NCBI GenBank assembly: GCA_964016885.1
Contig: OZ024741.1
Span: 228,470,001-228,534,000 of the forward strand
Reading direction: 5' to 3'
DNA: 64,000 nt
DNA from: Eledone cirrhosa
Taxonomy: Eukaryota
The translations under genes and the position numbers were made by a program. The notes below the pieces were generated by a model. The model saw only the letters and a program-made list of their open reading frames with translations. It was not told the DNA's origin and made no database searches. Positions 12,392 through 60,164 of the stretch are shown piece by piece (the stretch's first letter is position 1; each line of letters begins with the position of its first letter).

Positions 12392-13823
12392 ATATATATA
12401 TATATATATATGTATGTGTGTATGTCTGTGTATTGTATATATATATGTGTAATTATTTTTAATTATATAAAAAGAAATTTAATATAATTTTACTCCAAGA
12501 ACTTGTTGAGTGCTCTAATTCAGTTATAAACATTGATATTCTTATTTATATTTGTCGTATTTCCAACCCTCTGAATACCTCTTCCACTTTCTTTATATAT
12601 ATATATTTTTTGTTTATGGCTTGCATGTATGTGCGTGTGTATGTATGTGTACCTATGTGTATGTATGTATATTTTTATATATAAGTAATTATTTTTATAT
12701 ATATGTGCGTATGTGGTTGTATGTATTTTTTCTCATATTATGTGTGTGTGAATATATTTATATATTTTTTGATATATGTATATACACCTACATTTGTATA
12801 TATGTACCTATACGTGTGGTTGAGAGTATATGCGTGCGTACGAGTGTATATGCACGTGAGTATGTATATGTATGTATATGTATGTATATGTATGTATATG
12901 TTGTATGTGTAGTTATATATGTATGTGTATATGTGTGTATGTGTGTATATATATATATATATGTGTGTGTGTGTATATGTTTTGTATGTTTATACTTATC
13001 TGTGTATATGTTTGTACTGTATATTTATATATATATGTCTGTATATTTCCCTGTATGTGTATGTGTATGTGTATGCATATGTATGTGTGTATATATGTTT
13101 ATGTATGTGTGTGTATATATATATAATTGTGTATGTGTATATGTTTGCGTATATATATGTATATATATGTATTTATATGTAAGTATATATATATATATAT
13201 ATATATGTATATTTTTTTTATGCATTCGCTTACCACGTGTGTTTGTTTATTTATTTTTATTTGTTTTTTTTCAGTTTGTTTTCCTCTTTCGTATTGCTGT
13301 CAACTTGGTAATTTTTTATTTTTTATTTATTTTTTAATTTTGATATTTGACTTTATATTTTACTTTTATTTATTTATTATTTTGATTTCATGTATATGTA
13401 TTTTGTCTGTGTAAGGTGATGTGACTGCTTACTTTAGTATATGCATTATATTCGTTTATTTATCTTTATTTATTTATTTTTATAATTATCTCTATATATA
13501 TATGTATAAAAATATATGTGTGTATATATGTATGTATATATATATATATACCTATATATATATGTATATATATATATATATATATATATATATATATATA
13601 TATATATATATGTGTGTGTGTGTGTGTATTTGTGTTTTTATGTGTATGTGTGTGTATATTTATATATATATATGTGTGTGTATATATATGTGTGTGTGTG
13701 TGTGTGTTTATATACTTTTATATTTATTATCTTTTTCTCTTTTTTCTTCTTCCTTCATCCTCACTGTCATATTTCTAATATTTTTGTTTTTCAAATCTAC
13801 ATTCAATAAAAACACCAGGATTT

Positions 13824-13883
13824 TTTCATTCTGACGATTGAAAGCAGATTTATTTGCTTTCAAGAAACCACTGGTAAATGAAA
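13824..13883 (+). ncRNA. Type I hammerhead ribozyme, intact core
   Basis: TTTCATT-CTGACGA-TTGAAAGCAGA(ttta)TTTGCTTTCAA-GAAACC(act)GGTA-AATGAAA; stem I 7 bp, stem II 11 bp, GUA site. Confidence 0.92.
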
Positions 13884-13999
13884 TAATCATCTTATGTTGT
13901 TTATTACATAAATAAGCTCTGTAACCTACATAGAGCACTCTTTTTTCTTGGACCTTTTCGACGGAATTACTTCATTCACACACACACTCACACATATAT

Positions 14000-14700
14000 A
14001 TATATATAGCCATCACCACTACTACAACCACCACCATCACTAATACAGACATGTCCACTTCTACAACTACTACAGCCACCACCACTACTACAACCACCAC
14101 CTTTACTACAACCAACACCACTACTACACCCACCAACCATCACAACTACCACCACCACCAAAAGAGCCCCGCTATCACCAACCAACCACTGCCAACATCC
14201 CACCAATTGTGCCATCTTATCACTGCAACCAGCCACTACTACCAACACTCCGCTACTATCATCATCACTAACATTGTCACGACACCTACAACCATCACCA
14301 ATGTCTTTAATATAACCACCACCACAACTACTACCAGCACTACCACCACTACCACAACCACGACGACGACGACGACGACCTCCACCACACCACCACCACC
14401 ACCACCACCACCACCACTGCTACCACTACAACACGCAGCATTACCAGCCCACCATTACCCCATCATAATAACCATCACTAACACCACCAAAAACCACCTC
14501 CACCACCACCACCACCACCACCACCACCACCACCACCACCACCACCACTGCTACCACTACAACAAGCAGCATTACCAGCCCACCATTACCCCATCATAAT
14601 AACCATCACTAACACCACCAAAAACCACCACCACCACCACCGCCAACACCACCACCACCACCAACACCACCACCGCCGCCGCCATCACTAACACCACTTT
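14000..14700. repeat. (ACC)n-rich low-complexity tract with an internal duplication of about 130 bp
   Basis: GCAGCATTACCAGCCCACCATTACCCCATCATAATAACCATCACTAACACC at about 14435 and 14565. Confidence 0.8.
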
Positions 14701-14939
14701 CACAAACAACGAAAACATCATTTTCCAGTGTCGAGCGGTTTTGTAGAATTCTGTTCATTTCTGTCAACAAGCCGTCACTTCCGGCTTAATGGCTTGCGCG
14801 GCTTTCACGCTAGGCGTCGCCACCTGTCCTTCCTTCCTTACTTCCTCTCGTGCGCTCGTGCGCCGGTGACGAAAAGCTGCTTGTCAATTGCTCACCTTAC
14901 AAGATCCCTGTGTCCCCGTTTCCGTATCAGTTATTATAA

Positions 14940-15570
14940 CACACACATACACATACTTACATACACACACATAAGCACACACTAACACACATATAGACAC
15001 ATATTCTCACATACATACGCACACTCATATATATATCTCTCTCTATATATATATATATATACATACATACATACACACTTTTGCACATAAACACGTGCTC
15101 ACACACACATACTTACATACACACACATAAGCACACACTAACACACATATAGACACATATTCTCACATACATACGCACACTCATATAGCTCTCTCTCTCT
15201 ATATATATATACATACATACACACTTTTGCACATAAACACGCGCACACACACACACACATACTTACATACACACACATAAGCACACACTAACACACATAT
15301 AGACACATATTCTCACATACATACGCACACTCATATATATCTCTCTCCATATATATATATATACATACATACACACTTTTGCACATAAACACGCACACAC
15401 ACACACACACACATACTTACATACACACACATAAGCACACACTAACACACATATAGACACATATTCTCACATACATACGCACACTCATATCTCTCTCTCT
15501 CTCTCTATATATATATATATATACATACATACATACACACTTTCGCACATAAACACGTGCTCACACACAC
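14940..15570. repeat. Minisatellite, 4 x about 155 bp
   Basis: ACATACTTACATACACACACATAAGCACACACTAACACACATATAGACACATATTCTCAC repeated at about 14951, 15107, 15257, 15411. Confidence 0.85.
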
Positions 15571-57632: not shown

Positions 57633-58411
57633 ATATATATATATATATATATATATATATATATATATGTATATGTATGTATATCGATGTATATTTTATA
57701 TTTTACTTGTTTATATATATATATGTATATATATATATATATATATATATATATATATATATATATATATATATATATATATATATATATATATATATAT
57801 ATATATATATATATTTTCTTGATATATTTCTTTTTTCTTTTTCTTTTCTTTTTATTTCTAAATTTATAGATACATTTATAAATAGGCAGTCTGCTGACAC
57901 CGGTGAATACTGACCTCTTCTCCCCCCCCACCTACTTTCTGTATCTGGATCTAAATATGTGTGGCAGTGTTTATGTGCGCGCATTAATGTCCATATGCTT
58001 ATGATAATAGTATATACACATATATATGTGTGTGGGTGTGTGTGTGTATATGTATGTTCGTGGTTGTGTGTATGTTTATGCGTATACGCGCGTGTGTGTG
58101 TGAATGTACGTATATGTGTGAGTATATGAATGTGTGTATATATTTATTTTTATATTTATATGTGTATACGTATTTTATCTGTAGATTATAAACATACAGA
58201 GACATTAGCCTTGAATTTTTGTATTTACATACATCTTTTTGGCATGCGTATGCATGTGAACATATATCTTTATGCATATCTGTGAACGAAGTTACTTACA
58301 TATATACACACACCTAACTGTATAAACTTTTTGTATTTTCATTGGTCAATTTGAACTCTGTTCCCAAACAGACCTGTAATTTTGAATTGTTGTTATTATC
58401 AATAAATATAT

Positions 58412-58565
58412 TTCATTATTTCTGAAGACGGCTTATATATGTGTTGGTATGTATATTTAATTTTGATAGTTTGTATAATTTTGTATAATTTTGTACATAG
58501 ATCTGTTGAATATGCATGCCAATTCTAACACATATATATCCTAGAAACGATCGTTAAATAATGAA
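58412..58565 (+). ncRNA. Hammerhead ribozyme with about 115-nt stem II
   Basis: TTCATTATTT-CTGAAGA-...-GAAACGATCGTT-AAATAATGAA; 10-bp stem I, palindromic stem III ACGATCGT, GUU site. Confidence 0.85.
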
Positions 58566-59800
58566 CTTTTTTTGTTTAATATAAGGAACTGTTTCATTGT
58601 TTTATTCATTATTTTTTAAATATTTTATATATATATATATATATAAACTTTTTGAAATGATCTTTGCTAGATGCGATTTGATAGATAATTTTTGGCTTTA
58701 TCTGTTTTTCGACTCTGATGCTTATAATGAACTTGGCAATATATTGTCAATTAATTTTGAAGGGTTGATCTTTGTGGTTTATTTTTATTTTTATTTTTAT
58801 TTTTATTATTGTAGTATTTTCTAATATTTTTATTTTTAATATTTTTAATATGTAATATTTTTAATATGTAATATTCTTTCGTAATATTTTTTAGTTTTCT
58901 ATTTTATTATTACTTATTATTATTATTGTTATTTTTTAGTTTTGTTTCTGATATATATTTTTATTAGTATATTGAAATCTGCTCTTTATTTCTGCTTGAT
59001 AGATAATCTTGTAGAGTAAAGACAGGAATAGTAGTAATATTGACTCTATATATATTTGTGTGTATATATATACACATATATGTATACTTAAATTTTTATA
59101 CCACAATGAGAATGTTTTCCGTGAACTTAGGGTTTGCAGAGTTGATCATGTAAATTCACATAGATGTTTGTAGTTATCACATAAACATATGAATTTTTTA
59201 AAAAAACTAAACATAAGATCATTACTTTTCACACATTATGGATACATGTCTCATTCAGGAATACTGATATTTACAATATAGTGGCTGGTTTTTATACATA
59301 CTAATACTTCTACATTAAAACATAGGGTTTTTACGCCTCGCCTATGTCTGGTTATTTTTAAATTTTTCCTCTCTATATAACAGCTGGTTTCTCTCCATAT
59401 ATCTCCCTTACATTAATACTAGAGCTAAATAAATAAATAAATAAATAAATAAATGTATCATTGATACGTTTACTCAACGGACGTCCCACTACCTAGTTTT
59501 CTATATATATATATCTATCTCTATTTCCTCTCTCTCTATATATATATATCTCTCTCTGTTTCTTTACATGAAGTTCTTCTCTTTATCTATCTTTCCATCT
59601 CTCTATTTTGTTCCATGCATTTCTTCTTTTTCTTCTTTTTTTTTTTTTTTTTTTTTCTTCGTTTTCTGTCTTTCTTTCCTTTTTTCTCTCTTTCTTTCTC
59701 TCTGTGTACAATTTTTTCACTGCCAATTCAACTTTTTCAAATACAAGTCGATGTTGTTACGGTATGTCAAATCTATTTATCTATAAAACTGTTTATATTG

Positions 59801-59866
59801 TATTTTGTCTGAGGAAGGCATAGCATATTGTTAATATGAAATCCCTGAAATATATATAATGAAATA
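59801..59866 (+). ncRNA. Type I hammerhead ribozyme
   Basis: TATTTTGT-CTGAGGA-AGG..CATATT(gtt)AATATG..CCT-GAAATATATATA-ATGAAATA. Confidence 0.78.
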
Positions 59867-60164
59867 AATATGGTTTTATAAATATAGTTTCCATTTATTT
59901 AATATTGTAAATATACTCCAAATACTTGTCGAGTGCTTTTATATCAGTTATAAATATTTACTAGTTGTAACCCAACAATTTAAATATAACTTTCCATATA
60001 TATATATATATATATATATATATATGTGTGTGTGTGTGTATATATATATATATATATATATATATATATATATATATATATATATACACACACACACACA
60101 TATATATATATATATATATATATATATATATATATATATATATATATATATATATACATATATA

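Follow-up and report, generated by a model that had tools for sequence, protein, structure and literature searches.

What is the function of a short hairpin motif that recurs near the 3' ends of many (TA)n-embedded islands in one animal genome? The question arises from a stretch of 64,000 nucleotides (nt) of Eledone cirrhosa DNA (assembly GCA_964016885.1, contig OZ024741.1, forward-strand positions 228,470,001 to 228,534,000; hereafter the window), in which a preliminary description had listed ten copies of an RCTC...GAGYRC hairpin downstream of hammerhead ribozymes, across families it took to be unrelated. We find that the motif is real and larger than first described: it occurs in pairs, and a second base pair, which spans a conserved bulge, also covaries. 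Its carriers are Penelope-like elements (PLEs) that we assign to the Hydra clade. Each of the two hairpins stands at a fixed distance from one of two genomic 3' ends (end 1 before hairpin 1; end 2, the end of the tail, before hairpin 2), and inverted insertions combine one end of each kind. This twin hairpin is a conserved cis element that has apparently gone undescribed: the literature we searched, with Repbase reports, subscription papers, figures and bioRxiv supplements out of reach, held no matching motif of the PLE pseudo-long terminal repeat (pLTR).

Results

A bulged hairpin with two covarying pairs

All ten strings first listed are present on the + strand, two of them at corrected coordinates (12492 rather than 12502, and 59915 rather than 59916). 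The string at 36588, degenerate and single-copy, stays unconfirmed as a motif, and the one at 34178 comes from an old family in which the hairpin is intact in other copies. The refined pattern RCTC-Y-N(3-32)-R-T-N-GAGY-R-C matched the window 10 times, whereas 200 dinucleotide shuffles gave a mean of 0.475 matches and a maximum of 2. The host genome (3.0 Gb) is rich in microsatellites; 119 random 10-kb stretches of it (1.19 Mb) contained 77 matches, compared with 7-16 in 10 shuffles.

The consensus consists of a lower stem of four base pairs (RCUC/GAGY), a 2-nt bulge on the 3' side that starts with U, a covarying Y-R pair, a variable upper stem-loop and, on the 3' side, RCU(Y)U; in short form it reads RCUC-Y...R-(UN bulge)-GAGY-RCU. 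The covariation first proposed for RCTC and GAGY holds within this genome, where pair 1 alternates between A-T and G-C: among the 77 sampled matches, a set in which families recur in many copies, we counted 59 A-T, 12 G-C, 6 G-T and 0 A-C. Pair 3 is changed on both sides in hairpin 2 of family E1 and, by eye, in the published element Hydra-1_Crog.

The second covarying pair emerged from a metagenome scan. It yielded 79 loci, which at 80% nucleotide identity fall into 63 clusters, 46 of which include the start of an open reading frame (ORF) and at least 60 nt upstream. In these 46 clusters, 60 of 68 GAGYRC matches have an RCTC arm. Pair 5 joins the base that follows RCTC to the one three positions ahead of GAGY and is formed in 57 of the 60 hairpins (42 C-G, 14 T-A, 1 T-G, 0 C-A, 3 other), counts that ignore kinship among clusters related to one another; neighbouring positions show no such coupling, and the bulge is TT, TA or TC in 58/60. 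The gap between the arms ranges from about 5 to 95 nt. In families Hy1, B and B2 the arms lie 65-95 nt apart and keep their matched pairs, which fits a folded single strand rather than a fixed DNA site. Rfam returned no match at gathering score to the hairpins or the hammerheads in five loci with both hairpins; in the window, the 150 Rfam matches listed out of 295 were all below threshold and nearly all on simple repeats.

The carriers belong to the Hydra clade

The motif-bearing families are, judging from their sequences, new families of a known clade, the Hydra PLEs; what had looked like unrelated families are homologous pLTR ends of this one clade. Upstream, copies of family A (window site 21917) run into a Hydra-type endonuclease end, which in loci L005 and L018 lies about 1.2 kb away. 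Tandem units of families C (59915) and B (13916) lead downstream into a reverse transcriptase (RT) ORF some 45-110 nt past the tail end (for B in loci L181 and L193), and an RT ORF likewise lies downstream in families B2 (42907), D (43573), E2 (23162) and E1 (22328). The motif lies in the 5' untranslated region, and we reject it as coding sequence.

A single ORF carries the RT together with a C-terminal GIY-YIG endonuclease (737 amino acids in C, encoded at L196:3546-5756, and 813 in Hy1). DKT replaces DKG in C, Hy1 and E2; the same three families have RWR, and D has RWK. Of 39 metagenome ORFs, 33 have both RW[KR] and DKT/DKS, and six have neither in the stretch searched. The CxCX5C linker and the CxxC and CxH motifs around a conserved E and N could be read in C and Hy1, and each is found in 36/39 metagenome ORFs; CCHH, judged by eye, is absent. 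The pLTR contains a predicted hammerhead (core and helices by pattern), and the insertion target is (TA)n. The Hydra clade as described in the text of Craig et al. 2021 (PMC8557442) shares the single RT-GIY-YIG ORF, the clade motifs, the pLTR hammerhead, (TA)n targets, inverted 5'-truncated copies and a one-sided tail, the last being 60-140 nt long in our families and 30-40 nt in that account. Pfam assigned no family to the C or Hy1 protein, and a sequence search found no solved structure. The family C protein, modelled with AlphaFold (predicted local distance difference test, pLDDT, 86), best matched TERT with an E-value of 1.3e-9 and a template-modelling (TM) score of only 0.34.

Hy1 is very young: 140 scored copies share 99-100% protein identity. 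Its tandem unit measures about 6.67 kb (loci L131-L144), including a 3' region of roughly 4 kb that is largely microsatellite-like, and helix II of its hammerhead contains about 120 nt of inserted sequence. We considered family C as the 3' end of Hy1 and rejected this, as Hy1 ends at 58628.

The motif is fixed to the 3' ends, not to the hammerhead

A hammerhead upstream on the same strand had been reported at about 30-130 nt from the motif. We found one at five of the ten sites, recognised by pattern at 13831, 21806, 43435 and 59809 and by reading at 42809, and the distance to GAGYRC is 102-141 nt; the copies at 12492, 22328 and 23162 are 5'-truncated. Enrichment near hammerheads is only modest, with GAGYRC 30-250 nt downstream of 8 of 41 hammerhead calls against about 3 expected, 3 upstream and 1 far away, because many copies end just before the motif and other PLE clades, Neptune-like ends included, do not have it. 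Nor does the random sample show the strand bias of the window: 10/10 motifs lie on + in the window, compared with 32 on + and 29 on - in the sample, where neighbouring motifs agree in strand in 17 pairs and disagree in 23. The motif-bearing tails of the window all point to +, an orientation not shared genome-wide.

What the motif does keep constant is its position relative to the element's genomic 3' ends. Using 11 family references and counting from the start of the TA run, with 22 further ends at reference ends excluded, we mapped 153 3' ends that abut (TA)n. A hairpin follows 144 of these ends at a distance of -2 to 18 nt, in 107 cases at 6-9 nt; six of the other nine are tail ends of references without hairpin 2. 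On metagenome contigs, 8 of 13 ends lie 0-15 nt before a hairpin. The two kinds of end are well seen in family A, in which 10 of 16 matches that stop short of the motif in inverted copies end 22-24 nt before GAGYRC, and direct copies run about 65 nt beyond it. At the junctions, element and target match over a short TA-like sequence. Among 51 tailed inverted structures in unselected DNA, 12 have GAGYRC 22-42 nt into the tail; the remainder include other clades and chance palindromes. Of the roles offered for a shared cis signal, RT recognition or priming is supported as the leading option, with the genomic 3' end in place of the hammerhead as its anchor.

End 1 is paired with end 2 in 40 of 41 inverted insertions (15/16 in the random stretches and the window). 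Twenty-four seemingly symmetric inverted structures proved on inspection to be mostly nested in larger palindromes, or unrelated. Two further arrangements deserve mention. At one place (G000:C2:7215679-7215821) the tail of family D forms a head-to-tail repeat of about 104 nt, as though copying had jumped from end 2 back to end 1, and locus L070 (G000:C2:80000001-80010000) holds a 4.4-kb palindrome with several nested PLE stubs mirrored on both arms and centred on a fold-back stub.

A stub at 23110 had suggested a strong stop of copying at the hammerhead cut, an idea we rejected: of the 48 5' ends, just 2 fall at the cut or up to 2 nt from it, with 36 upstream and 10 downstream. The missing pile-up makes uncleaved or circular RNA the likelier template. 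Separately, the hammerhead cores of L330 (family E2) and L063 carry the U3-A8 change described in PMC4209133.

A second hairpin beyond the tail end

Most full units have two copies of the motif, both downstream of the hammerhead and ahead of the ATG, the second one just past the tail end. We had predicted this second hairpin beforehand for four families, E2, D, E1 and A. For E2 the search gave 364 matches, and about nine in ten of the 100 listed share one continuation, a full hairpin followed by the Hydra ORF. Family D shows it in 49 of 52 matches, again with the Hydra ORF behind it. In E1 the second hairpin is a short GCAC/GTGC stem 7 nt after the end, and the Hydra ORF follows. Family A gave no match in a first search; a looser one found a single rearranged copy with a full hairpin, whose start resembles that of family C and which has no ORF after it. 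In tandem units of family C, hairpin 2 and then an ATG follow the tail end.

Hairpins also mark the end of a non-coding sequence. A 616-bp tandem array inside Hy1 has in each unit a long-loop hairpin (55792-55898) and a second hairpin (56052-56094). The array terminates 5-8 nt ahead of the first, with the same end point in loci L010, L069 and L312; a pattern search found no hammerhead in it.

The hairpin in other animals

In the metagenome clusters, GAGYRC lies within 170 nt of the ATG in 41/46 and is present two or more times in 26/46, mostly 53-74 nt apart, with the last copy usually 14-47 nt ahead of the ATG. Its density before the ATG is 9.2 per kb, 20 times the 0.46 per kb of the ORF bodies; shuffles gave a mean of 3 matches. 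Published Hydra consensus sequences, coral, sea-cucumber and copepod among them, show the hairpin by eye in 4 of 6: in the PMC8557442 supplement it is present in Hydra-2_Amil, Hydra-1_Ajap (twice) and Hydra-2_Ajap, with a variant in Hydra-1_Crog. Hydra-1_Amil as given there ends ahead of the motif, and Hydra-1_Obim has no copy clear to the eye. The hairpin recurs in Hydra-type PLEs of many aquatic animals.

Features of the window

Table 1. PLE-related features of the window, with positions counted from its first nucleotide.
Feature	Position	Strand	Details
Family-C-related Hydra PLE tail	12492..12516	+	5'-truncated, hammerhead gone; hairpin 1
Family B pLTR with tail	13745..13975	+	Core 13831; hairpin 1 13916-13941; tail end ~13975
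Family A pLTR, inverted tail-less copy	20904..21090	-	3' end matches 21911, just before hairpin
Family A pLTR with tail	21725..22002	+	Core 21806; end 1 ~21911-21913; hairpin 1 21917-21944; end 2 ~22002
E2-like fold-back stub	22135..22240	.	By eye; neither end tailed; possible exception to end pairing
Family E1 fold-back and tail	22250..22385	+	Hairpin 1 22320-22343, 5' arm with one change in this copy
Family E2 fold-back and tail	23110..23228	+	Hairpin 1 23154-23182
Old family F tail	34085..34262	+	Long-loop hairpin ~34132-34189, decayed here, intact in relatives
Two 3'-arm-like matches	36588..36660	+	Single-copy DNA; unconfirmed as motif
Family B2 pLTR	42780..42946	+	Core 42809; hairpin 1 42907-42932
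Family D inverted insertion	43083..43633	+	Cores 43181 (-) and 43435 (+); end 1 ~43534; hairpin 1 43540-43584; end 2 ~43633
Hy1, 5'-truncated young Hydra PLE	51237..58628	+	RT-endonuclease ORF 51237-53111; long 3' region; core 58422; stops tail-less at 58628 (full copies run on into hairpin 1)
Non-coding tandem array inside Hy1	55654..57633	+	616-bp unit, 3.2 units
Family C pLTR with tail	59700..59997	+	Core 59809; end 1 ~59908; hairpin 1 59915-59939; end 2 ~59997
Control PLE	1..2449	-	Hammerhead at 178; no hairpin motif

The control PLE we take, from its motifs, to be Neptune/Nematis-like. At 24647-26033 lies an inverted and tandem array with a unit of about 310-320 bp and a hammerhead core, retrozyme-like in shape, in which we saw no GAGYRC, and at 26990-29200 two decayed Hydra ORF fragments are inverted relative to each other, with none of the motifs close by. 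The broken reading frames at 46900-50950 presumably derive from a Helitron-like Rep/PIF1 helicase, again going by motifs; Pfam gave no match for the one piece submitted.

Discussion

Structured RNAs that are bound by an RT and fix where copying starts or stops are familiar from the 3' stem-loop of R2/L2, from hepadnavirus epsilon, which has a bulged stem, and from the telomerase template boundary, and the signal of long interspersed nuclear elements (LINEs) is copied into every insertion. The Hydra hairpin differs from the LINE signal in lying beyond the start, which excludes it from the complementary DNA (cDNA) that it would direct, and in having two copies for two ends. We consider it likely that each hairpin serves as an RT handle on the sense template RNA that sets the start of copying 3-9 nt upstream, and that a single transcript, with its two handles, serves both strands of the target. 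In the scheme that we propose, an RT-endonuclease protein, probably a dimer, would bind both hairpins of one transcript and nick both strands of the (TA)n target. Each nicked TA end would anneal to a short U/A-rich segment that lies 3-9 nt 5' of a hairpin, and copying would proceed upstream from there. One cDNA would be tail-less and the other tailed, and the two would join head to head; the tail would be the interval between the two start sites and hold hairpin 1 only, with hairpin 2 retained only where copying passes through a tandem or circular template. The stricter form of this proposal, that the paired bulged hairpins act as a two-site ruler by which one dimer on one transcript primes both (TA)n strands at a fixed distance 5' of each hairpin, has in our estimate an even chance of being right.

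The closest experimental parallel is a Poseidon-clade PLE of the anole, Poseidon_Ac, for which the text of Frangieh et al. 2024 (PMC11167929) describes internal initiation at two sites that delimit the tail, extension of both target strands, a predicted dimer and dispensable hammerhead cleavage. The last point fits the 2/48 5' ends found at the cut site in the Hydra families. In that text no binding motif is defined beyond its placement within the first 172 nt of the ORF, and the start falls inside an AC-rich stem-loop in the ORF, whereas the Hydra families have a repeated, covarying hairpin 3' of each site, in the 5' untranslated region. The main text of PMC8557442 does not contain the words 'hairpin', 'stem-loop' or 'palindrom'. 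Metazoan non-LTR retrozymes, short non-coding tandem units related to pLTRs, resemble in shape the 616-bp array and a 299-bp E2 tandem; the available descriptions (PMC7229834; bioRxiv 10.64898/2026.07.22.740005) mention no such downstream hairpin.

Several observations weigh against the RT handle. The anole element initiates inside its AC-rich stem-loop, not 5' of one, according to the text of PMC11167929. Folding energies are mostly weak, z reaching about -3.1 only in the two B-type hairpins and lying between -1.6 and +0.5 in the other eight; this low predicted stability in eight of ten examples suggests protein-assisted folding. Wobble pairs, at 14 G-U versus 8 A-C in metagenome upper stems, do not settle which strand folds, nor do those of the Eledone genome point one way (6 versus 0 at pair 1, 1 versus 3 at pair 5). 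The second hairpin of E1 has neither bulge nor RCU. Three of the 153 ends in the Eledone genome and five of the 13 on metagenome contigs lie elsewhere, and the 153 include search-selected loci and may count a copy under two related references. Finally, a Neptune-like family shows the same end pairing (9/9) without the motif, which is thus not required for a tail in all PLEs.

A fixed end distance and the same covariation would also be expected if the hairpins directed RNA cutting or termination a few bases upstream, with ordinary priming at the resulting 3' ends, and RNA-seq read ends of the anole element do coincide with its initiation sites (PMC11167929). A cut before hairpin 1, however, removes the template of end 2, so that the near-strict pairing of ends would need two differently cut RNAs for each insertion; internal initiation, moreover, was demonstrated in vitro for a relative in the same study. 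We regard this explanation as improbable. The hairpins might instead form in DNA that is single-stranded, be it the cDNA or a strand that has been displaced, and direct the GIY-YIG endonuclease in trimming or resolving the intermediate at both ends. The undecided wobble counts leave room for this, endonuclease-mediated resolution has been proposed for the tail (PMC8557442, text), and the D. virilis tail is reportedly needed for endonuclease recognition, as cited in PMC11167929. Yet the anole start sites equal the tail boundaries with no trimming step, in the text of the same paper, and the TA-like junction matches are what priming predicts, which leaves DNA trimming an unlikely account. An internal promoter, a role the preliminary description had allowed, or a translation element, with ends adjoining for another reason, is in our view very improbable even though Penelope itself carries such a promoter close to its tail (PMC2377424) and the last motif lies shortly ahead of the ATG, because the arms tolerate spacings of about 5-95 nt with paired changes, both hairpin copies track an end within a few bases, and hairpins are kept in a non-coding array ending at the same distance.

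How a PLE chooses its template, and why its tail is one-sided, is a long-standing question, on which the one in vitro study located start sites and not the signal. The twin hairpin makes the origin of the tail directly testable with a few point mutants, and suitable material is at hand in a young family whose ORFs are intact and whose copies agree at 99-100% in the pLTR. The hairpin predicts which of the truncated stubs and which of the non-coding arrays remain mobile in trans, offers a marker of Hydra element boundaries and invites comparison with RNA recognition by telomerase. If correct, the two-site ruler would be the first defined RT-recognition element of any PLE and would explain both the tail and the head-to-head insertions, and it would provide a short, portable tag that sets an internal start on any RNA for a telomerase-like enzyme.

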